Origin: an uncultured bacterium
GTDB lineage: Bacteria; Fidelibacterota; Marinisomatia; Marinisomatales; TCS56
DNA length: 64,000 nt
Direction of reading: 5' to 3'
NCBI GenBank assembly: GCA_964410945.1
Contig: CAYPJE010000003.1
Location: 3,398 to 67,397, forward strand
The notes under the pieces were generated by a model. It was not told where the DNA came from and did not search any database. It was given only the letters and a program-made list of their open reading frames with translations. Positions 1-60,247 of this stretch are shown piece after piece (position 1 is the first letter of the stretch; each line of letters opens with the position of its first letter). Position numbers and translations under genes: made by a program.

Positions 1-1
1 T

Positions 2-274
2 GATTATTTCTCCAGTTTCGAAACCTCGGATTTGGTCGGTATTCTGCTGATCCTGGTGGCAATTCATTTATTGATACTGCGGGGACGCAAAAAGCTTACC
101 GTCCAGTATGGCAACATTCATGCCTGTCCCTATTGTAATCACGAAAAAATGAAACGTGTTAAACGGTTTTACTGGCATAAGCTTCTGGGGTACTCCCTGA
201 TGCTACGCACTAAGCATTATCGCTGCCTTTCCTGTAATAAAAGCACCATTACATTTTCACAGATGAAACCTTAG
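2..274 (+). CDS. hypothetical membrane-anchored zinc-ribbon protein (5' end may lie outside the window)
   Basis: ORF track 32..274 begins at TTG, but the same frame is open back to nt 2. Hydrophobic helix VGILLILVAIHLLIL is followed by two CxxC pairs (CPYC, CLSC). Confidence 0.4.
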   Translation, partial: DYFSSFETSDLVGILLILVAIHLLILRGRKKLTVQYGNIHACPYCNHEKMKRVKRFYWHKLLGYSLMLRTKHYRCLSCNKSTITFSQMKP

Positions 275-8703: not shown

Positions 8704-8837
8704 AGCGTTGATTCACTTTCTCCCGCTCTCCTGGTTGGTAAAAAATCGGTCTTGACCGTCACTATCCTCAACCAATATTAAGGCCTAAATATTTCAGATA
8801 AAAGGATTATTTGAGAATGAATCTCATTTATTATAAA

Positions 8838-40013: not shown

Positions 40014-41047
<1,034 letters not shown>

Positions 41048-41051
<4 letters not shown>

Positions 41052-42883
41052 CCTACAATCTTTTCTACTGCTTCGATTACATCGCGGGCCAGAAATGGAC
41101 GGCCGCGGACGATATTCAACTGCAGCGGATCAATCAGATATTCCGACCGAATGATCTGTGCCAACTGTCCCAGATTGATTTCCGGGATCAAAACATGTTT
41201 GAATCCGGCCAGCACATCACCTAGGTTCCCGGGTAGTGGATTAACCCAGCGCAGGTGCACATGGCTGACAGCATGCCCTTTGGCCTGCAGTTTCTGCAGG
41301 GCTGCCCGGCAGGCACCGCGCGTGCTGCCCCAACTGAGGATCAGCAGATCACCACTGTCTTCACCAATCACCCGGCAGGGCTCGACATCATCAACCACAT
41401 TGGCAATTTTTTCCGCCCGCAGGGAAATCATCAGGTGATGGTTGTCGGGATCGTAGTTAACATTACCACTGCCATCTTCCTTCTCCAATCCACCGATGCG
41501 GTGTTCCAGTCCCGGGGTACCGGGAATGACCCATTTCCTGGATTTCGATTCCGGGTCCCGTTTGTAGGGCAGGAACGGTGGATCGGTTACATTAGTCAGC
41601 ATGGGTGGTTCGATCTCCGGCAGATCGTCAACATCAGGGATTTTCCATGGTTCGGAACCATTACCCAGATAGCCATCGGTGAGCAGCATGACCGGGGTCA
41701 TGTATTTAACAGCGATCTGGGCCGCCTCGAAAGCGGCATAGAAACAGTCACCGGGGGAGCGGGCCGTGATCACCGGGATCGGTGCCTCACCATTACGTCC
41801 GTAAATGGCCTGAAAAAGATCGGATTGCTCAGTCTTGGTTGGTAATCCGGTTGAAGGACCACCGCGTTGGACATTGACAATCACCAGAGGCAGTTCGGTC
41901 ATTACCGCCAACCCCATGGCTTCGGTTTTTAGAGCAACACCGGGGCCTGAAGTTCCTGTGGCTGCCAGACATCCGGCATAGGCCGCGCCGATAGCGGAGG
42001 TGATCCCCGCAATCTCATCTTCGGCCTGGAAAGTACGGACCTTGAAATTCCTGAAACCAGCCAGGTAATGCAGAATATCGCTGGCGGGTGTAATCGGGTA
42101 GCTGCCATAAAACAGCGGCAAACCCGACTTGGCGGCAGCGGCTACCAATCCCAGGCTGGTGGCATAATTACCGCTGACATTGCGATAAGTACCGGCCGGC
42201 AGTTTGGCTGCGTCAACTTTATAGTTTGTAGTGAAAATCCGGTTGGTCGAACCATAATTGTAACCGGCATTCAAAGCACGGGTATTAGCCTCAACAATGT
42301 CCGGTTTACTGGCGAATTTGGATTTCAGCCATTCGATGGTCGATTCAATTGGACGGTTGTACATCCAGTACAAAAGACCCAGAGCAAACATATTTTTTGT
42401 ACGCTCAACGATCTTGGATGACAGGCCCATATCTTCGCAGGCATGGCTTACCAGGCGACTCATATCAATCGGGTAAACAATATAATCTTTAAGGGTTTCA
42501 TCTTCCAGCGGATTAATCTCATAGCCGGCCAGCTTGAGGTTCTTGGTAATGAAACTGGAGGTATTAATAATTATAATTCCTCCACGAACCAGTTCCTTCA
42601 TATGTACTTTGAGGGCTGCCGGATTCATAGCCACCAGCACATCGGGATCATCACCTGGCGTGAAAATCTCCTGGGAGCTGAAGTGCAGCTGAAAAGCACT
42701 TACACCGGCCAGCGAACCCGCGGGGGCCCGGATTTCGGCCGGATAGTCAGGCAGAGTACTGAGATCGTTACCGATGATGGCAGTGGCACTGGTAAAACGG
42801 TCACCGGTGAGCTGCATCCCATCACCGGAATCACCGGCAAACCGGATGGTTACATCATCGATCTGTTTTAGGGTTTTAGGCAT
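41048..42883 (-). CDS. korA: 2-oxoglutarate:ferredoxin oxidoreductase alpha subunit (fused gamma-alpha type)
   Basis: 611 aa. N-terminal gamma-like domain (IRFAGDSGDGMQLTG). The central alpha domain is YPITPASD ... VNVQRGGPSTGLPT. Confidence 0.85.
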
Positions 42884-43127: not shown

Positions 43128-43931
43128 ATGTTTGACTTAAAGGATCCGCAGCAAATAGCTATGTTTCCCGAACTTTCGAAAAACACCGCTTTACCTTCAA
43201 TTGCGAGTCAGCCCCAGTTTGAAACAGCCCTGGCCAATCTGATCCGAATCAGCGATCTGGGTGCCTTTGTCCAACTGAATATCAACGGCATTGACAAAGG
43301 TTACAGTCTGAATGTAAATGAGCTGGAGATTCCGCCCGACTTCTTAAAGGACAACCCCTCCCTGACACCACTGTCTGTTCAATTGTTTCCTGCTCCGGTG
43401 AGGCGGCAACTGCAGAAACTGGTCTATGATATTAAAGCCTATTTTACTGCTGAGAATTCTCTCCATACCACCTTTGGCCCCTTTTTATACCGCCATCGAT
43501 TCAGTCACTGGAACCGGTTTCTGGAACTGGAAAAAGGCCGGCTGATTAAAACCGTTAAGCGTCTGCTGGGCAAAAAGACCTACTCCCGCTTCTTCATTGA
43601 TCAGTTCAAAGCAGGTTATGACATGTTTCAATCAGCAGCCGATATTACTGCTCCCTGGGAATTCCGGAGCAAGATTACAATGGCGTTAATTCGTGATCAG
43701 CGCCGGAGACTGGAGCAGAAAGAATTTGAGTTGAACAATCTCAGTCCCACCGATATCGACTTTCCGATGAAAATGATGATAATAAAAACACATCATATCC
43801 CCCTGAAACTGGATGATTACCTTAAACAGATAAATATCATTTCGTTTTTCAAAACCATCCATATCGAACACCTGGCTGATGTTGAAATCAATACCCTGGA
43901 TGATATCAGACATCTGTTTTCTCAATTTTAA
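43128..43931 (+). CDS. hypothetical protein (no recognisable domain)
   Basis: 267-aa ORF with an ATG start preceded by GGAGG. No motif that I recognise. Confidence 0.5.
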   Translation: MFDLKDPQQIAMFPELSKNTALPSIASQPQFETALANLIRISDLGAFVQLNINGIDKGYSLNVNELEIPPDFLKDNPSLTPLSVQLFPAPVRRQLQKLVYDIKAYFTAENSLHTTFGPFLYRHRFSHWNRFLELEKGRLIKTVKRLLGKKTYSRFFIDQFKAGYDMFQSAADITAPWEFRSKITMALIRDQRRRLEQKEFELNNLSPTDIDFPMKMMIIKTHHIPLKLDDYLKQINIISFFKTIHIEHLADVEINTLDDIRHLFSQF

Positions 43932-43984
43932 TTTTATACTTAAGCTCCCTCCTGTTTAATTAACCAACTCCGGCCAATTTGACC

Positions 43985-45031
43985 ATGAATAAAGAAGCTA
44001 TCCGACTTACCACCCTCAGCCACGGATCAGGGTGAGCCTGTAAAATAGGTCCGGAGGACTTGTCGAAAATTCTTGACTCCATCGAGACAGGCCATGATGA
44101 GCGCATTGTGGTCGGTTTTGATGGGACTGATGATGCGGCCGCAGTGCGACTCGATGATGGCCGGTTGTTGCTGCAGACGGTCGATTTCTTCACTCCCGTG
44201 GTGGACGATCCCTACCAATTCGGGCAGATCGCCGCTGCTAATTCACTATCCGATATCTATGCCATGGGCGGAAAACCGCTGTTTGCCCTCAATATCGTCG
44301 GCTTTCCGATCAAGTCCCTTCCCAGGGAAGTACTGACCAGGATTCTGCAAGGCGGTATCGACAAGGCCCGGGAGGCGGGAATTTCAATCGTTGGCGGCCA
44401 CAGTATTGACGATCCGGAACCAAAATACGGCCTGGTGGTGACCGGTGAAGTAGATGAATCGAGGATGCTGACCAACAGTAATGCCCGTCCGGGGGACACA
44501 TTGATTTTAACCAAACCGCTGGGAACCGGAATCATTGCCACTGCCATCAAACGCGGTACCGCCACTGAATCGGCTATTCAGGCAGCGGTTGAATCGATGA
44601 GCCAGTTGAACCAATTGGCCGCCGTCACGGCACAGGAATTGGACGCTCATTCGGTAACCGATGTTACCGGTTTCGGACTGCTTGGCCATCTGAGTGAAAT
44701 GTGTCGCGCCAGCAATGTTTCCGTAAGGGTTGATTTCTCAGCACTACCCTTCTTACCGACAGTTGAACAACTGGTGCAGGCCGATGTGATCCCGGGTGGA
44801 ACCAGGCGAAATCTTGAATACGCATCCAGGCATGTATCTTTCAACGATTCATTGTCCGACAATCAGAAATTGATGGCCGCCGATGCCCAGACTTCCGGAG
44901 GTTTACTGGTGGCGCTACCGGCTGACAAAGCCGGTGAATTCTGCTCTAAATACAATTCTCACTCAAATTTACCGGCTATCAAGGTGGGTACATTTACTGA
45001 GTCTCAGAAATATCTGATCAAGATCATTTAA
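43985..45031 (+). CDS. selD: selenide, water dikinase (selenophosphate synthetase), selenocysteine-containing
   Basis: ATG at 43985. Reads MNKEAIRLTTLSHGSG-TGA(44033..44035)-ACKIGPEDLSKIL, in frame with track ORF 44060..45031. This matches the E. coli SelD N-terminus [18 protein letters not shown], with U replacing Cys17. Confidence 0.85.
44045..44063 (+). promoter_or_regulatory. candidate SECIS hairpin downstream of the selD UGA
   Basis: ATAGGTCC-gga-GGACTTGT (8 pairings including two G-U), beginning 9 nt after the TGA. Confidence 0.35.
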
Positions 45032-45329: not shown

Positions 45330-45599
45330 ATGAAGCTTAACTGCTGGGAGGTGAATCGCTGCGGTCGAGAACTAGGGGGTAAAAACTCCAAGGAACTGGG
45401 TGTTTGCTGCTCTGTAAAATTTACTGCTTTTAATGGCACAAATAACGGATTCAACGGTGGAAGGTACTGTTGGGCCGTAGCCGGATCATTAAAAGACACA
45501 CCCAAAGATTGTATCCACAATCCCCCGGGTAATGATTGTACCGAATGTAATTTTTATTCCAAAGTCAAGGAGGAAGAAAGTATAAACTTCATTGCCTGA
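45330..45599 (+). CDS. small cysteine-rich two-CW-type protein
   Basis: 89 aa. NCWEVNRCGRE ... GRYCWAVAG ... CTECNFY pattern. SD GAAGGAG upstream. Confidence 0.55.
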   Translation: MKLNCWEVNRCGRELGGKNSKELGVCCSVKFTAFNGTNNGFNGGRYCWAVAGSLKDTPKDCIHNPPGNDCTECNFYSKVKEEESINFIA

Positions 45600-45677: not shown

Positions 45678-45983
45678 ATGAACTATTGGCGTGTGCCATT
45701 TGATATCAATAAAATTGAAATCCCCCATGGTGATATCCAAATCCTGGTCGAACGCTGCAAGGGCTGCGGCTTCTGTGTGGAATATTGCCCCAAGCAAACC
45801 CTTGAAATGTCGGCTGATTTTAATCGCAAGGGTTATCATTATCCTGATATAGTCCGCGAGGGAACCTGCGTGAACTGTAATCTATGTGAGACTATCTGCC
45901 CCGAATTTGCCATTTTCGTACTGGAGGATAAACCCCGGCACCCGGATGCCGATGAAGTGCTGGGAAAGGAAGGTGACCAATGA
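45678..45983 (+). CDS. 2-oxoacid:ferredoxin oxidoreductase delta subunit (2x[4Fe-4S] ferredoxin)
   Basis: CKGCGFCVEYCP and CVNCNLCETICP motifs. 4-nt overlap with the alpha subunit gene. Confidence 0.8.
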   Translation: MNYWRVPFDINKIEIPHGDIQILVERCKGCGFCVEYCPKQTLEMSADFNRKGYHYPDIVREGTCVNCNLCETICPEFAIFVLEDKPRHPDADEVLGKEGDQ

Positions 45984-47137
45984 AGGCTGATCCCAAAGGT
46001 GTTGCCACCGGAGCCCACTATCTGGATGGTGACCACGCCTGTTCCGAAGGTTCAATCGCCGCCGGTTGCCGATTCCTGGCCGGCTATCCCATCACCCCCT
46101 CCACGGAAGTAGCCGAACGAATTGCCGTCCGCTTCCCAAAAGTCGGAGGTATGTTCATCCAGATGGAGGACGAGCTGGCATCGATGGCCGCTGTGGTTGG
46201 TGCCACCTGGTCCGGTGTTAAGGCCATGACTGTTACCTCAGGGCCCGGCTTCTCCCTGATGATGGAAAACCTCGGGCTGGCCGTTATGATGGAAACACCC
46301 TGCGTAGTGGTCAACGTTCAGCGCGGCGGTCCATCTACCGGGTTGCCAACCCTGACCGGACAGGCCGATATGATGCAGGCCCGCTGGGGATCGCACGGGG
46401 ATTATGAAATAATCGCCATTTCACCCAATTCCCCGCAGGAATGCTTCGACCTGTCCATTACCGCCTTTAACCTGGCGGAAAAATGGCGCGTCCCGGTCCT
46501 GTTCATGATGGACGAATGTGTCGGTCACATGACTGAAAAAGTCGTTATTCCCGAAGCGGATGAAATCGAGATCACTCCTCGTGAATACTACCAGGGCACA
46601 AACGGTTCCTACCGACCGTATAAATTTAATGAAGGTGAACTGACTCCAATGATCAAGGCCGGTGATGGCCATAACATACATATTACCGGGCTGACCCACG
46701 ACGAACGTGGCTATCCAATTATCAATGCCGAAGCCCAGGAGAAAAACGTAACCCACCTGGTAAATAAAATCCGCGACAATGCGGACAAGATCCATATAAT
46801 TGAAGAGGATCAGATAGAAGGTGCCGAGGTGGTTGTGATATCATATGGTATTTCATCACGAGTGGCCCTGAAAGCGGTGGATGATGCCCGCACCAAAGGA
46901 ATAAAAGTCGGAACGATGCGCCTGGTTACGGTATGGCCCTTCCCTGAGAAACGAATCCTTGAATTGGCCGGCAAGGTTAAGGCCCTGGTGGTTCCGGAGA
47001 TCAATCTGGGACAAGTAGTTTTGGAAGTTGAACGCTGTGCCCAGGGTAAATGCAAAACTATCCTGGTACCACATGCCGGTGGCTGGGTTCATGATCCAAT
47101 CAATATCTTAAAAGCAATCGAAGAAGGTGCGTCATGA
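45980..47137 (+). CDS. 2-oxoacid:ferredoxin oxidoreductase alpha subunit
   Basis: YPITPSTE and VNVQRGGPSTGLPT motifs. 385 aa. Confidence 0.85.
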   Translation: MKADPKGVATGAHYLDGDHACSEGSIAAGCRFLAGYPITPSTEVAERIAVRFPKVGGMFIQMEDELASMAAVVGATWSGVKAMTVTSGPGFSLMMENLGLAVMMETPCVVVNVQRGGPSTGLPTLTGQADMMQARWGSHGDYEIIAISPNSPQECFDLSITAFNLAEKWRVPVLFMMDECVGHMTEKVVIPEADEIEITPREYYQGTNGSYRPYKFNEGELTPMIKAGDGHNIHITGLTHDERGYPIINAEAQEKNVTHLVNKIRDNADKIHIIEEDQIEGAEVVVISYGISSRVALKAVDDARTKGIKVGTMRLVTVWPFPEKRILELAGKVKALVVPEINLGQVVLEVERCAQGKCKTILVPHAGGWVHDPINILKAIEEGAS

Positions 47138-48072
47138 GTGAAATTACCGCTGATATGACCAGTACGCTCCAAATCCCCGACCCGGAAGAGACACTAAAGC
47201 ATCCCATGGAACGCTTCCTGCGCACCGAACGTCTACCTCACATCTGGTGTGCTTCCTGCGGAATCGGCACCGTGATCACCGCCTACATCACCGCCCTGCA
47301 GAAGTCCGAACTGGACCCGGAAAAAGTGGCTGTTGTATCCGGTATCGGCTGCTCTGGTCGTGCCGCAGGCTATTTAAGGCTGGATTCCTTCCACTCCACC
47401 CATGGCCGGGCGATTCCCTTTGCCACCGGACTGGCAGTTGGCAATCCGGAATTGAAAGTGACCGTCATTAGTGGCGACGGTGATTTAATCGCCATCGGTG
47501 GTAATCATCTGATCCACGCCGCCCGGCGGAATATCAACATGACCATCATCTGTATCAATAATTTCAACTATGCCATGACCGGAGGCCAGGCCGGGCCAAC
47601 CACACCGGTTACGGCTAATGCCTCCACGGCACCTTACGGCTGTTACGAATTCCCCTTCAACCTGCCCTTCCTGGCGGAATCATCGGGTGCAATTTTCGTG
47701 GCCCGCTGGACGGCCCTGCATATCAGGCGGATGGCTAAATCCATAGAAAAAGCCCTGCTCAAACCAGGCTTCTCATTTATTGAGATAATTGCTCCCTGCT
47801 CCACCCTTTATGCCCGGCGCAATCGTCTGGGATCGGGGCTGGATCTGATGAAATTTTATCATGATAATGCTATCATCAAGCACGGAATAGACACCCGGGA
47901 AGTTGATATCGACTTCCAGGAAAGTATCATGGTGGGTGAATTCGTCGATAAGGATAAACCTCATTTCCTGGCCAAACGGGATCAGTTCCTGAAAATGAAA
48001 CTGGGTGATAAATACATCCCCTATCTGGGCCCTGATTCCACTCCTTCAACCATGAAGCAGGGAGTAGAATAA
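47134..48072 (+). CDS. 2-oxoacid:ferredoxin oxidoreductase beta subunit (TPP-binding)
   Basis: WCASCGIG, GIGCSGR and SGDGDLIAIGGNH motifs. Confidence 0.85.
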   Translation: MSEITADMTSTLQIPDPEETLKHPMERFLRTERLPHIWCASCGIGTVITAYITALQKSELDPEKVAVVSGIGCSGRAAGYLRLDSFHSTHGRAIPFATGLAVGNPELKVTVISGDGDLIAIGGNHLIHAARRNINMTIICINNFNYAMTGGQAGPTTPVTANASTAPYGCYEFPFNLPFLAESSGAIFVARWTALHIRRMAKSIEKALLKPGFSFIEIIAPCSTLYARRNRLGSGLDLMKFYHDNAIIKHGIDTREVDIDFQESIMVGEFVDKDKPHFLAKRDQFLKMKLGDKYIPYLGPDSTPSTMKQGVE

Positions 48073-48635
48073 TGGATATTCGATTTTCTGGTTTTGGCGG
48101 GCAGGGAATAATCAAATCCGGAATCCTGATCGGCAAGGCAGCCTCATTGCACGACAATAAATTCGGCACAATGACCCAGAGCTTCGGCCCCGAAGCCCGG
48201 GGTGGCGCCTGTTCCGCCCAGGTGGTTGTCGATGATAAACCGATACTTTATCCCTATATCGTAGCACCTCAAATCCTGGTATCGATGTCACAGGAGGCTT
48301 ACGAGAAATTCCTCGATGAACTGGTTCCCGACGGTATCCTGCTCACTGATTCCGACCTGGTAAAGCCGGAACGAACCCGGGATGATGTCCGCATGTACTC
48401 GATCCCTTCGACCCGGATTGCCGAAGATATGGGTAATCGTATTTTTGCCAACGTGGTCATGGTTGGATTCTTAACCGGTATTACCAGAGTGATAAGTGCC
48501 GAATCGGTGAAGGCCGCTTTGCCTGATTCGGTACCGGAACGTTTTATCGATGTAAATATCAAAGCCTTTGAGCGCGGCTATGATTATGCGCTCGAACAAT
48601 TGGAGAAGGAAACCAAAGAACCGGTCAAAGCCTGA
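48072..48635 (+). CDS. 2-oxoacid:ferredoxin oxidoreductase gamma subunit
   Basis: IRFSGFGGQGI ... FGPEARGG motifs. Start overlaps the beta subunit stop. Confidence 0.85.
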   Translation: MDIRFSGFGGQGIIKSGILIGKAASLHDNKFGTMTQSFGPEARGGACSAQVVVDDKPILYPYIVAPQILVSMSQEAYEKFLDELVPDGILLTDSDLVKPERTRDDVRMYSIPSTRIAEDMGNRIFANVVMVGFLTGITRVISAESVKAALPDSVPERFIDVNIKAFERGYDYALEQLEKETKEPVKA

Positions 48636-48641
48636 GAAAAC

Positions 48642-50978
48642 ATGAGCAGTACAGCTACCTCCCCTGTTAAGGATAAAATTTTTCCCGCTAACTCCACCCT
48701 GATCATTGATGGTCCCCAACGGCAGGAATACACGGTTGGCCCGGTGGAACCATCGCCCTGCACAATGGCCTGTCCCGCCGGTGTAAATGTAAAAGCCTAT
48801 GTTTCACTGATGGCTGCCGGTCGTTTCCGGGAGGCCTTGGAAGTAATTCGTGAACGCAATCCCCTGCCGGGAATCTGTGGCCGGGTATGCACGCATCCCT
48901 GCGAGGCGGCCTGCAATCGGAATCAGGTTGATCAACCGGTGGCGGTCAGATGGCTGAAACGTTTCGCTGCCGATTGGGAACTGGCCAATCAGATTGCAGA
49001 TCCGGTTCCTTTCAATACAGCAAAGACCGGAAAAATTGCCGTGATCGGTTCCGGACCCAGCGGTTTAACAGCGGCCAACGACCTGGTACGCCAGGGTTAT
49101 GCGGTGACAGTTTTTGAGGCAATGGATGAACCGGGTGGTATGCTGATCGCCGGAATTCCGGCCTACCGCCTGCCCAGAAAAATATTATCCACTGAAATTA
49201 AATACCTTGAGAAACTTGGCATTAAAATCAGAACCGGGGAAAAAATCAGCGGTGATAAGGCACTGGAAAAATTATTTGCCCAGGGTTATAAGGCAATTTA
49301 CCTGGCAATCGGTGCCCAGGATGGAAAAAAATTAAATATCAAGGGAGAGGGTAAAACCGAAGGAGTACTGGATGCTGTCACTTTCCTGAATCAGGTAAAT
49401 CTGTCAGCAGCCAGTAAACCGGGTGATAATATTATTGTAATCGGCGGCGGTAACTCTGCCGTCGATTCAGCCCGGACCGCCCTGCGCCTGGGAAGTAAAA
49501 AAGTGCATATCGTCTATCGCCGAACCAGGCAGGAAATGCCGGCTGACGAAGAGGAAATAGTGGAAGCGGAACACGAAGGTGTGGAAATAACCTATCTGGT
49601 CGCCCCCCTGGAAGTACTGGTGGACAGTGATAAAATCACCGGACTGAAGTGCCAGAAGATGAAACTGGGTAAACCGGATGACAGTGGGCGGCGGCGGCCG
49701 GTTCCAATCGAAGGTTCGGAATTTACCATTGAATGTGACACGGTGATTTCCGCCGTCAGCCAGCAGCTGCGCTTGGACTTCGGTCTGGGTGAAGTCGAAT
49801 TATCGCGCTGGAATACGTTGGCAGCCGATGAGTCAACCATGGCTACCAGTCAGCCGGGTATCTTCGCCGGAGGTGATGCGGTAACTGGTCCCAGCACGGT
49901 GATTGATGCCATTGCCGCCGGGCACCGGGCCGCCGAATCAATCATGCGGTATCTGGATAATGAACCTTTGCAGGCAGACCCATTGCCGGCACCGGGAACA
50001 GAATTTGAAATAAAGATCGATATCGACCAGCGGCCGGCCCAGAACCGGGCTGTTATGCCGGCCAAGAAGATTCAGCAACGATTGGGTAATTTTGATGAAG
50101 TCGAGTTTGGTTTTGATGAAACGACCGCCATTGCTGAAGCCCGACGCTGTCTGCGCTGTGGCCCATGTGTCGAATGCGACAGTTGTCTGACACTATGCGA
50201 TAAGCAACCGGTTCTGCTGACCATCCCGGACCAGTCAGGTGAATATTTATTCCGTGTTCCTGCTGCCCTTCAGTCACAAATAAAAGCCAGTGGCGGGCTT
50301 TCGGTTGATTTGAAAACCGGAGGTAAAGCAACTTCACCGGTCCTGCTGCAGTCCCTCCAACCTCAAGTGGCAGCGAATATCTGCCGCGGTTGCGGCGAGT
50401 GTATCAACATCTGTGAATATGATGCTATCAGCATGATCCCGACCGAAGGTGATTTATCCGTTTCAGTAGTCAATAACGATCTTTGTCGGTCCTGTGGTAC
50501 CTGCGTGGCAACCTGTCCCAACGGTGCCATGCTGCCGGGTTATACCGATTATCAATGGCTGGATTCAAAGCTGGCACATCTCAAACCGGGGAAAATCAAC
50601 CTGGTGGTATTTTCCTGCCGCTGGAATGGTTCCAGTCTGGCAGCGGATGAGATCAGCAAACTCCAGTCCGGCAGAATAAACCTCAATCTGGTGCAGACAA
50701 TCTGCGGGGGACGCATTGATCCAAGCTTTACATTACGGGCAATTTCGGCCGGAGCCACCGGAGTCCTGATCAGCACATGTGCCGATGATGATTGCCATTA
50801 CGGTACCGGTGCCAGCCAGACAAAAGCAGCTTTTGAAGAAACAAAAAACCTGGTTCATATTCTAGGAACCGATACCAGGCGGATCAAATTAATCCAGATT
50901 CCCGGGAATGATTCCGTTGAATTCATTAAAGCCGTTAAATCCTTTGGCACCAAATTAAAAAAACTGGCGAGTAACTAG
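48642..50978 (+). CDS. GltD-like NAD(P)H flavoprotein fused to ferredoxin and MvhD-like domains
   Basis: GltD N-terminal cluster region CPAGVNV...GRVCTHPCEAACNR. GSGPSGLTAA and GGGNSAVD Rossmann motifs. CxxCxxCxxxC motifs. C-terminal FSCRWNG...CGGRID...CHYG (MvhD-like). Confidence 0.8.
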   Translation: MSSTATSPVKDKIFPANSTLIIDGPQRQEYTVGPVEPSPCTMACPAGVNVKAYVSLMAAGRFREALEVIRERNPLPGICGRVCTHPCEAACNRNQVDQPVAVRWLKRFAADWELANQIADPVPFNTAKTGKIAVIGSGPSGLTAANDLVRQGYAVTVFEAMDEPGGMLIAGIPAYRLPRKILSTEIKYLEKLGIKIRTGEKISGDKALEKLFAQGYKAIYLAIGAQDGKKLNIKGEGKTEGVLDAVTFLNQVNLSAASKPGDNIIVIGGGNSAVDSARTALRLGSKKVHIVYRRTRQEMPADEEEIVEAEHEGVEITYLVAPLEVLVDSDKITGLKCQKMKLGKPDDSGRRRPVPIEGSEFTIECDTVISAVSQQLRLDFGLGEVELSRWNTLAADESTMATSQPGIFAGGDAVTGPSTVIDAIAAGHRAAESIMRYLDNEPLQADPLPAPGTEFEIKIDIDQRPAQNRAVMPAKKIQQRLGNFDEVEFGFDETTAIAEARRCLRCGPCVECDSCLTLCDKQPVLLTIPDQSGEYLFRVPAALQSQIKASGGLSVDLKTGGKATSPVLLQSLQPQVAANICRGCGECINICEYDAISMIPTEGDLSVSVVNNDLCRSCGTCVATCPNGAMLPGYTDYQWLDSKLAHLKPGKINLVVFSCRWNGSSLAADEISKLQSGRINLNLVQTICGGRIDPSFTLRAISAGATGVLISTCADDDCHYGTGASQTKAAFEETKNLVHILGTDTRRIKLIQIPGNDSVEFIKAVKSFGTKLKKLASN

Positions 50979-52306: not shown

Positions 52307-54793
52307 ATGAATGACGACGGTCTGAGAGTCGGGGTGTTCGTATGTGAATGCGGCAAGAATATAGCCGGTTCACTGGATTGCCAGAAGGTTAGCGACTATG
52401 CCGCTACCCTGCCCGATGTGGCCTGTTCGGTGGTAAATAAATATACCTGTGCCGAACCGGGCCAGCAGGAGATCAAGCGCTACATCAAGGAGCACAACCT
52501 CAACCGGGTGGTTGTAGCTTCCTGTACGCCGCGTATGCACGAACCCACCTTCCGCAATTGTGTATCCGAAGCCGGACTGAATCCATACCTGATGGAAATG
52601 GCCAATATTCGCGAACACGTAAGCTGGGCCCATATCAATGACTGGGACGCAGCGACACAGAAGGCCATGGATTCGGTACGTATTGCCGTGGCCCGTGCCA
52701 AATTATTAAGACCCCAAACCGAGGCCCGCATCCCTGTAACCAGGGAAGTGCTGGTGATCGGTGGCGGAGTCGCCGGTATTCAATCTGCGCTGGACCTGGC
52801 CGATGCTGGTTACCAGGTTAACTTAGTAGAAAAGGAGGCATCCATTGGAGGGATCATGGCCGCGCTGGACAAGACCTATCCCACCATGGATTGTTCCATA
52901 TGAATACTCGGACCAAAAATGATGGATGTCGGTCGACATCCCCGGATTAATTTATATACGCACAGCGAAATAGAAGACGTCAGCGGCTACATCGGCAACT
53001 TCCAGGTGAAGGTGCGGAAAAAGGCCCGCTATGTAAATGAAGATGAATGCAACGCCTGTGGTGAATGTGAGAAGGTCTGCCCCGTGGTTGGACCCGATGG
53101 ATTCCAGGAAGGTTTTTCCTCCCATAAGGCAATCTACATGCCGTTCCCCCAGGCCGTACCATCGGTCTATATTTTGGACGATGAACTCTGTCTGGGCCAT
53201 AATCCCATTGCCTGCGGGAAATGTGCCGATGTCTGCGAGAAACAGTGCATCGATTTCGACATGGAAGATGAAATCATCGAATTGGATGTCGGTGCCGTGA
53301 TCGTTGCCACCGGGATGGATGTTTATGATCCTACTGAGATGGATGAATACGGCTACACCCGTTTCGAAAATGTTATCACCAGCATGGAATTCGAACGGCT
53401 GATTTCAGCCGGTGGTCCCACGGAAGGTCATTTCGTCCGGCCCAGCGACCAGGAAACACCAAAACGGATCGCCTTCATCCAGTGTGTTGGATCGCGGTCC
53501 AACAGCGCGGTGGGTAATCCTTACTGCAGCAATATCTGCTGCATGAATACCGTCAAGGACAGCCTGTTGCTGAAGGATCATTATCCTGACATAGAAATCA
53601 CTGTATTCTACATGGATATCCGGGCCTTTGGTAAAGGTTTCGAGGACCTTTTCATGCGCAGTAAGATGGCCGGGGTCCAGTATATCCGCGGTTTGCCCGG
53701 TGAATTCTTTGAAGATCCAACCACAAGGAATATCACCTTGATTGCCGAAGACACCAATACCGGTGCCATCCAGGATTATGAATTCGATACGGTGGTACTT
53801 TCAGTTGGTGTAATTCCCCGCAAGGACAGTGATATGGTCCGGCAGCTCTTCACCCTGTCCCGCACCGAAGACGGATTCTTCATGGAATCCCATCCCAAGC
53901 TCAAGCCGGTTGATGCTCCTACCGGCGGGGTGTTCTTTGCCGGTTGCGTGGAATATCCCAAGGATGTGAAGGACAGCGTTACCCAGGCCAGTGCTGCGGC
54001 GGCCCGCGCCCAGGTACTGCTGAACGCCGGTGATATAAGTATCGAGGCCATTACCTCCGAATGCCATACCGAGGACTGTTCATCCTGTGGCATCTGTGTT
54101 AAAGTATGTCCGTTCAACGCTATCCGTGGTGGCGATGCCAAAGCCAAGATACCCGCCGAGGTGATCGAAGCAATGTGCAAAGGCTGTGGTACCTGCGCCG
54201 CCGAATGTAACTTCGATGCCCTGACCATGAAGCATTTCGAGGATGCCCAGTATATCGCCCAGATCGATGCCATGCTGGAAGGCGACAATATGGCAAATAC
54301 AGTGGTCTTTGCCTGCAACTGGTGTTCATACGCCGGTGCCGACCTGGCTGGTTTGTCGCGCCTGCAGTACCCGGCCAATCAACGTATCATGCGTACCATG
54401 TGCAGCGGCCGCGTTGATTCGGAATTCATCCTGCATGCCTTTGAAAAAGGCGCCCCGATCGTCCTGGTATCCGGCTGTCATTTCGCCGATTGCCATTACA
54501 TTGATGCCAATCGCTGGACGGTCAAGCGGGTCGAGAAACTGTGGGATAAAATGGAAAAACTTGGTATTCGTCCCGAACGGTTGCAGCTGGAGTGGATCTC
54601 CGCTGCCGAAGGCCAGAAATGGGCCCGCACGATGCGTGAGCTGGAGGAGATGCGCCAGAAGGTCACCAAGGACGAGGTAAAGCACACCATACAAGTCCTA
54701 AAAGAGGAACGGGAAAAGGCTGAAGCCAGGGCCGCCAAAAAAGCAGAAAAGAAGCTGAAGCCCAAACCAGTTCCGGTAAAGGCGGAAGCATAA
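52307..54793 (+). CDS. hdrA: heterodisulfide reductase subunit A-like flavoprotein with C-terminal MvhD domain, selenocysteine-containing
   Basis: Track ORFs 52307..52903 and 52919..54793 are in the same frame, separated only by TGA (52901..52903). The read-through gives KTYPTMDCSI-U-ILGPKMMDVGRHPRINL, matching the conserved HdrA DCS-x-C-ILxPK motif. GGGVAGIQSA FAD motif. C-terminal FACNWCSY...CSGRVD...CHY. Confidence 0.85.
52924..52941 (+). promoter_or_regulatory. candidate SECIS hairpin downstream of the hdrA UGA
   Basis: GGATGTC-ggtc-GACATCC: perfect 7-bp stem with a 4-nt loop GGUC, beginning 20 nt after the TGA. Confidence 0.55.
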
Positions 54794-58966: not shown

Positions 58967-60247
58967 ATGATTATCGAACTATTGCAGATTTTTATATCAG
59001 AAACCTGGCTGGTGTTAACACAGATGGGGCCCTATCTCCTGTTTGGATTCCTGGTAGCAGGCATCCTGTCGGTTTATATCGATTCAGAATGGGTTGAACG
59101 ACACCTGGGCGGCAAGGGAATCATGCCGGCCATCAAAGCAGCCCTCTTCGGAGTTCCTCTGCCCCTCTGCTCCTGTGGTGTAATTCCGGTCTCGACCGGC
59201 ATTTACCGCCATGGTGCCAGCCGTTCCGCCACTACTTCATTCCTGTTGTCAACACCACAAACCGGGGTCGACTCCATCCTGGTTACCTATGCCCTTTTGG
59301 GGCCGGTCTATGCCGTGTTCCGTCCGGTAGTGGCATTAATTACGGGAATTGTCGGCGGCGGTCTGGTTCAATTGGCGGATAAGGATAATCCATCCAATCC
59401 GGATGTTGAAGTTCAGGAAACGGATGATGATTGCGACTGTGACAGCTGCGCCGATGCCGATAATCCCAGCAAGATTTCCCGGATCATGAAATACGGATTC
59501 ATTAACCTGCCTAAGGATATTGGTTCGGCCCTGTTCATCGGAATAATGATCGCCGGTGCCATGGCGGCCCTGGTGCCACCTGATTACCTGGGTGGACTCA
59601 TTGGCGGTGGAATTATTTCCATCCTGATTCTGATGGCGGCCGGTGTCCCGGTCTATGTCTGTGCCACCGCCTCGGTACCAATTGCCGCCGGCTTCATTCA
59701 CATGGGTGCTTCACCCGGTGCTGCCCTGGCCTTTCTGATCGCCGGTCCCGCCACTAATGCTGCAACATTCACAACAATACTGAAGGTACTGGGGAAAAAA
59801 ACCGCTACGATCTACCTGACCACCGTAGCCGTGACTGCTGTTATTAGTGGCCTTATCCTGAACTGGCTTGTCCCGGTCATGGAGAATATTGTACCACAGA
59901 TAAGTGGGCATGTCCATGATTCGGAAAGCATTACCTGGTGGTCACATTTGTCAGCCGTCGTTCTACTTGCAGTAGTAGCTTACTCCTATTATTACAAACC
60001 TAAACCGGTCATAACTCCGATCAACGTACTTAGTACAGAGATTGAACAGCTAGAATTCAGTGTTACCGGAATGACCTGCAGTCACTGTGCTGCAAATGTC
60101 CACCAAGCAGTAGCTGAATCGTCCGGGGTTGAATCGGTCACCGTTGATCTGGACAGTGGTCGTGTGAAGGTGTCGGGTACAGCGGTTGATGAAGAAGAAG
60201 TAATATCAGCAATCCATTCCCGGGGTTACTCAGCCACCTTACTTTAG
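58967..60247 (+). CDS. permease with C-terminal heavy-metal-associated domain (SO_0444-type Cu/Zn efflux-like)
   Basis: Polytopic. LCSCGVIPV motif. Acidic Cys-rich loop DDDCDCDSC. C-terminal HMA domain GMTCSHCAANV. Confidence 0.75.
   Translation: MIIELLQIFISETWLVLTQMGPYLLFGFLVAGILSVYIDSEWVERHLGGKGIMPAIKAALFGVPLPLCSCGVIPVSTGIYRHGASRSATTSFLLSTPQTGVDSILVTYALLGPVYAVFRPVVALITGIVGGGLVQLADKDNPSNPDVEVQETDDDCDCDSCADADNPSKISRIMKYGFINLPKDIGSALFIGIMIAGAMAALVPPDYLGGLIGGGIISILILMAAGVPVYVCATASVPIAAGFIHMGASPGAALAFLIAGPATNAATFTTILKVLGKKTATIYLTTVAVTAVISGLILNWLVPVMENIVPQISGHVHDSESITWWSHLSAVVLLAVVAYSYYYKPKPVITPINVLSTEIEQLEFSVTGMTCSHCAANVHQAVAESSGVESVTVDLDSGRVKVSGTAVDEEEVISAIHSRGYSATLL

Follow-up and report, generated by a model that had tools for sequence, protein, structure and literature searches.

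A selD gene with a predicted selenocysteine at codon 17 and a candidate proximal SECIS hairpin in an uncultured Marinimicrobia-like bacterium

The selD gene, its neighbours and its catalytic column

Positions 43985-45031 on the plus strand of the window (the whole 64-kb stretch of DNA that was analysed) are identified as one gene, selD (selenide, water dikinase; selenophosphate synthetase). With UGA read as selenocysteine (Sec), 43985..45031 is a complete coding sequence of 348 codons plus stop, with the ATG start at 43985-43987, a sole in-frame TGA at 44033-44035, and the TAA stop at 45029-45031. The frame reads MNKEAIRLTTLSHGSG up to the TGA and ACKIGPEDLSKILDSIE directly after it, and then stays open to the TAA, giving a read-through product of 348 residues, Sec counted. 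Upstream, the frame is limited by an in-frame stop at 43961-43963, and TTG at 43979 is the only alternative start within it. The ORF at 44060..45031 (+), a mechanical call of 323 aa with a TTG start, belongs to this frame, beyond the TGA, and is an annotation artefact, a truncated selD without the catalytic loop. The preliminary description of this DNA had proposed that the ORF track cuts a Sec-containing selD at an in-frame UGA, and the frame leading from the ATG at 43985 through the TGA at 44033..44035 into this ORF was confirmed.

The same 323-aa form was yielded by gene callers on independent contigs and is held, at 100% identity, in public protein collections (P0001). The practical value of recognising the UGA lies in annotation, the gene being stored as a fragment that lacks the catalytic loop. 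In stored full-length SelD homologues that derive from ENA metagenome gene calls (P0002, P0003, P0005, P0006, P0024, P0061, and P0094), the Sec position is occupied by Trp (SHGSGWACK). The likeliest source of the Trp at the Sec column of these ENA-derived homologues is a translation-table artefact, not biology, and such records could mislead alignment-based surveys of Sec and Cys.

The gene order at the locus is a 267-aa protein directly upstream of selD (43128-43931, +; no Pfam family match), selD, an 89-aa Cys-rich ORF (45330-45599, +; CWEVNRCG...CC...CW...C...CTEC, no Pfam match), a 2x[4Fe-4S] ferredoxin, 2-oxoacid:ferredoxin oxidoreductase (OFOR) alpha, beta, and gamma, an NfnB/GltD-like flavoprotein-MvhD fusion, an HdrD/GlpC-like protein, and HdrA(Sec)-MvhD. 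In the related loci L084 and L085, synteny covers at least three genes, namely a 256-267-aa protein, selD, and the 89-aa ORF. A 267- or 256-aa protein stands at the same place in L084, L085, and the exact-match contigs, which is a conserved synteny, and the 89-aa ORF has a called counterpart in its place in L081, L083, L084, and L085. Two OFOR gene sets flank selD on opposite strands, at 40014-42883 (-) and 45980-48635 (+), and differ in make-up: one has a fused gamma-alpha gene plus beta, and in the other the ferredoxin is followed by alpha, beta, and gamma as separate genes. The best SelD relatives were found in Marinimicrobia / Neomarinimicrobiota / Fidelibacterota MAGs.

The read-through product, with Sec written as Cys, scored 409.3 bits against the TIGR00476 HMM (cut-off 125) and 390.2 bits against NF002098 (cut-off 299). 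A PurM-like two-domain architecture (AIRS plus AIRS_C) is given by the precomputed PF00586 and PF02769 matches on P0001. Three SelD crystal structures align over about 315 residues of the product, and the alignment to E. coli SelD (PDB 3u0o; E=5e-83) covers residues 1-316, beginning at residue 1. The earlier naming of the gene as SelD is supported by these results, with both HMM cut-offs exceeded and the E. coli protein aligned from its first residue.

Residues 1-37 of the product align to 3u0o without a gap, and the UGA (codon 17; 44033..44035, +) therefore falls on the Cys17 column. Cys19 and Lys20 (E. coli numbering) are kept, the loop reading SHGSG-U-ACK in the product and SHGAG-C-GCK in E. 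coli. The likeness to the E. coli enzyme, a Cys17 form, thus consists of the SHG-G-x-x-CK loop with Cys19 and Lys20, whereas Cys17 there is replaced by UGA/Sec here and Gly at residue 18 by Ala. Cys/Sec17 and Lys20 of the glycine-rich loop of SelD are essential (E. coli numbering). The UGA also matches the corresponding Cys of the Aquifex aeolicus SelD structure 2yye, a residue that we take to be an engineered substitute for the native Sec.

The codon at the Cys17/Sec column was read in 164 homologous loci, comprising species genomes, metagenomes, and protein-anchored contigs. It was TGA in 136, TGT in 16, and TGC in 12, with nothing else found. The TGA-bearing loci span many phyla and include all Marinimicrobia-like relatives, which are the closest (55-71% identity). 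The earlier placement of the UGA at the catalytic Cys/Sec column holds, with an exact match to Cys17 in the structure alignment, these homologue codons, and agreement among three assemblies.

Sec at the catalytic Cys of SelD is a well-known arrangement, and the biology is as expected; the recoding hairpin is slightly unusual. SelD is the second most widespread prokaryotic selenoprotein family (PMC13188914), and a term search of that selenoproteome review gave no mention of the Marinimicrobia-like host lineage. Sec-containing bacterial SelD (e.g., that of Haemophilus influenzae or Aquifex aeolicus) and the predicted product belong to the same family, have Sec in the N-terminal loop at one and the same catalytic column, and have a hairpin inside the coding sequence directly downstream. 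The protein itself is without any difference; what differs is the host, which is uncultured and Marinimicrobia-like, and the truncated form in which the gene is stored.

Hairpins downstream of the UGA

A hairpin beginning 9 nt after the UGA (hp1; 44045..44063, +) is present, as the preliminary description had it, and is the best SECIS candidate. Its stem of 8 bp, including three G-U/U-G pairs, is formed by 44045-44052 with 44056-44063 and closes a GGA loop (44053-44055) at a UGA-to-loop spacing of 17 nt; the energy is -7.1 kcal/mol alone and -7.8 kcal/mol with dangling ends. The bSECIS model given in the legend to Fig. 2 of a review from 2026 (PMC13188914) has a loop of 3-9 nt, an upper stem of 4-16 bp, a spacing of 16-37 nt from the UGA, a G in the first two loop positions, and an MFE <= -7.5 kcal/mol. 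The loop, stem, G, and spacing of hp1 are all within these limits, and its energy is borderline. By chance, hairpins of this grade and geometry occur at 3.4% of the window's coding positions, and 4.3% of synonymous re-codings of the peptide contain one. Taken alone, hp1 is only mildly unusual against chance, and its weight comes from the comparative data.

The core of hp1, GGUCC-GGA-GGAC, does not vary, its four synonymous sites included, in a four-member subclade (the window, L002, L084, and L085) in which the flanking codons do; because the core is invariant, it holds no compensatory changes within the subclade. Rfam searches, run at the gathering threshold over the whole window and permissively over 43900-44200, returned only tRNA-Glu and noise, and Rfam has no selD bSECIS family.

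Most Sec-type selD genes carry two hairpins after the UGA, as found in a codon alignment of the 51 nt that follow it in 61 such genes (alignment A1). The distal hairpin, hp2, has the form GCNCAG-GUN-CUGN'GC over the codons A-Q-V-L-G/R, with its loop 33 nt after the UGA, and its six pairs (columns 31-36 with 40-45 of A1) are paired at 90%. Covariation is seen at pair 33-43 (CG 23, GC 23, UA 2, and AU 1), which ties a synonymous site in the Ala codon to a non-synonymous one in the G/R/S/C codon. Base 3 of the Ala codon varies together with base 1 of a codon that alternates among Gly, Arg, Ser, and Cys, in the combinations GCC..GGC, GCG..CGC, GCU..AGU, and GCA..UGC (A1 columns 31-45; e.g., L039:3064-3078, L021, and L030). 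The RNA structure of hp2 appears to constrain the amino acid at this Gly/Arg/Ser/Cys position. The peptide at the hp2 site is much more variable in lineages without the hairpin. In Cys-type homologues hp2 is not kept, the mean local MFE being -8.6 kcal/mol there versus -14.9 kcal/mol in Sec-type genes.

In the E. coli fdhF SECIS, the upper stem-loop is GCAGGUCUGC, with G23 and U24 of the loop essential and a UGA-to-loop distance of about 20 nt. The apical hairpin of fdhF is resembled by hp2 of the relatives (GCGCAG-GUC-CUGCGC), and its loop GGUC is common with that of the hdrA hairpin described below. The spacing of the hp1 loop is close to that in fdhF, but the GGA loop of hp1 is without the U and no bulged U is evident.

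With the sample for the SECIS tally doubled by a metagenome scan, hp2 (at least 5/6 pairs) was present in 97 of 121 distinct Sec-selD sequences, every one of them with a GU-first loop. A two-stem selD bSECIS has already been reported, with a stem1 and a stem2, the loop of stem2 being minimal (3-4 nt) and fitting the Zhang & Gladyshev model (Mariotti et al. 2015, PMC4561486, Supplementary S6). At the site homologous to hp2 in the window (44063..44077, +; UCGAAAAUUCUUGAC), the hairpin is absent, with 2 of 6 pairs, the loop AUU, and the peptide SKILDS. It is also absent in L002, L084, and L085, the three closest relatives of the window (1-3 of 6 pairs across the subclade), and no closer SelD relative above about 68% identity was found in the metagenome scan. 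The published two-hairpin layout is thus that of the 97 sequences, and at the place of stem1 the window, too, has a hairpin; unlike that layout, the window and its three relatives are without stem2/hp2 and have the proximal hairpin only, with an invariant GGA loop. The missing hp2 bears on the recoding element, not on membership in the SelD family.

The 24 sequences that lack hp2 include an actinobacterial-type group (7-bp GCCCCAA-GGAC-UUGGGGC), some Chloroflexota, and an Alicyclobacillus. All 24 have a G within the two opening positions of the hp1 loop, and in 18 the loop starts with GG or GU; among the 97 sequences with hp2, the corresponding counts are 41 and 8. The mean hp1 energy is -8.9 kcal/mol where hp2 is absent and -6.5 kcal/mol where it is present. 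The association of hp2 loss with a G-first hp1 loop has a Fisher's exact p=1e-10 with kinship ignored, the 24 sequences representing perhaps 6-8 independent lineages. Our conclusion is that, in sequences without hp2, the SelB-binding features would reside in the proximal hairpin, and that the window falls in this predicted class. A single proximal hairpin structure across all phyla was also considered and rejected; the proximal hairpin occurs in at least three registers in different lineages and is therefore not one homologous helix.

The suggestion that hp1 could be the SECIS stands in part, since the published bSECIS geometry is found in it but it is not the element most conserved in Sec-type selD. 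On these comparisons, hp1 is probably the SECIS of selD. The main alternative is that Sec is inserted but that the functional SECIS is a larger or different structure than the simple hairpin at 44045-44063, in the form of a larger fold that includes hp1. The candidates are a Y-shaped fold at 44033-44094, with hp1 and a second small hairpin lying inside a stem of GCCUGU (44036-41) and ACAGGC (44088-93), and an outer stem in which the UGA itself takes part. A 68-nt fold is stabler than shuffled sequences (z=-2.1, -19.7 kcal/mol), RNAalifold, applied to the four sequences of the subclade, gives an additional outer stem between UGAG and a downstream CUC/CUU, and hp1 by itself is energetically marginal. 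However, L002, L084, and L085 do not share the window's long-range stem, which has no compensatory changes, and the other local hairpin (loop CUCCA) is without a G in its loop. The sole element conserved in the subclade is hp1, with the loop feature common to all hp2-lacking lineages, and the larger fold is regarded as unlikely.

With hp1 as the putative SECIS, a history of the element can be proposed, to which we give even weight for and against. The selD SECIS may have moved in this lineage, SelB binding having passed from an ancestral distal GUN hairpin (33 nt), since lost, to a proximal hairpin that already existed (codons G-P-E-D, GGA, 17 nt); similar independent takeovers may have occurred in the actinobacterial-type group, some Chloroflexota, and Firmicutes, and the loss of hp2 would have freed the peptide AQVLG, elsewhere constrained in part by the RNA, to drift to SKILDS. 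Two SECIS layouts exist among Sec-type selD, and the window is in the minority with the proximal hairpin only. As a small point, the Sec-selD layouts offer a natural series on shifting SelB recognition sites within a coding sequence.

Decoding of the UGA

Coding conservation was found on both sides of the UGA, upstream in the codon-position pattern and downstream in the HMM and structure alignments. In nearly all of 20 relatives, the 11 codons 5' of the UGA specify IRLTTLSHGSG, and pairwise DNA differences over these codons are 0.275, 0.138, and 0.616 at codon positions 1, 2, and 3, respectively. As the differences lie mostly at third positions and the peptide is kept, the segment upstream of the UGA is taken to be translated. 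Gene callers and public databases render the gene as if the UGA were a true stop, the product being either the 323-aa protein from the TTG at 44060 or that of a pseudogene. Such a 323-aa protein would, however, be without the catalytic loop (Sec/Cys17, Cys19, and Lys20), the 16 codons upstream correspond to the N-terminus of SelD and show purifying selection, and the TGA is kept at the column in the 136 loci from many phyla. A true stop is very improbable on this evidence.

TGA terminates 21 of the 56 long ORFs of the window, which is therefore read with the standard genetic code. A genome-wide reassignment of UGA (code 4 or 25), giving Trp or Gly here, would fit the W at this column in some public (ENA) translations of close homologues, but it is hardly credible against those 21 terminations, the occurrence of only Cys otherwise at the column, and the explanation of the W as a translation-table artefact. 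That the TGA is a misread or misassembled TGC or TGT, for which one base change would be enough, can be practically dismissed on the base-for-base identity of the 1047-nt gene in three independent assemblies from different sequencing runs and on the TGA in all close relatives.

The reading held with high confidence is that of a selD with a UGA-encoded Sec at codon 17 in the catalytic loop, with hp1 as the most likely SelB tether, in a lineage without the distal hairpin. When the ribosome arrives at the UGA, SelB with its Sec-tRNA(Sec) would be tethered to a hairpin of the mRNA a short way downstream, from where it would deliver Sec in place of termination. In this selD, the tether would most likely be hp1 (44045-44063), with its GGA loop 17 nt after the UGA, and the distal GUN-loop hairpin, present in most Sec-type selD, would have been lost in this lineage.

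A second in-frame UGA and other candidates in the window

An hdrA2-type gene fused to an MvhD domain lies at 52307..54793 (+) and has an in-frame UGA at 52901-52903 (MDCSI-U-ILGPK), as assigned by HMM and alignment. The ORF track splits it into 52307..52903 and 52919..54793. The product scored 1172 bits against NF040770 HdrA2 (cut-off 1100), and the UGA sits on the conserved Cys of DCSICIL; in the HdrA structure of Methanothermococcus (5odc_A), its aligned counterpart is the Cys of TNDCSICILAPK. The candidate SECIS of hdrA is a 7-bp hairpin (GGAUGUC/GACAUCC) at 52924..52941 (+) with the loop GGUC at 52931-52934, which starts 27 nt after the UGA; its energy is -9.4 kcal/mol, and synonymous resampling gave p=0.057. 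The second Sec gene that had been proposed for the window is borne out by the conserved Cys column and the HdrA2 score, and its UGA may be counted as independent, indirect support for an organism that decodes UGA as Sec.

Such an organism would be expected to possess selA, selB, and selC (tRNA-Sec). None of the three was found within the 64-kb window, and ARAGORN found no tRNA-Sec in the window or beside selD in 60 related loci. Once recognised, the Sec-type selD marks the uncultured Marinimicrobia-like organism as a probable selenocysteine user, with at least two predicted selenoproteins (SelD and HdrA) in 64 kb. Use of Sec would bear on the energy metabolism and the selenium requirement of the organism.

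The window was scanned in all six frames for in-frame TGA codons with open frames on both sides, and besides selD and hdrA, no translated candidate with a convincing frame across the TGA was found. The TGA candidates at 8715, 23976, 61016, and 14563 were rejected, as they have no convincing upstream coding sequence. A read-through at 48633 was also rejected; this TGA is the stop of OFOR gamma and is in frame with the ATG of the next gene at 48642, and the two are adjacent genes with separate domain sets. The arrangement at 48072-50978 (+), OFOR gamma followed by the NfnB/GltD-like-MvhD fusion, mimics a read-through candidate. The gene at 58967-60247 (+), which has no UGA, encodes an SO_0444-type Cu/Zn efflux transporter with a CopZ-like metal-binding domain fused to its C terminus; against the 'UxxU metal-binding (seleno)protein' model, this domain gives a weak match of 32.6 bits (cut-off 95).
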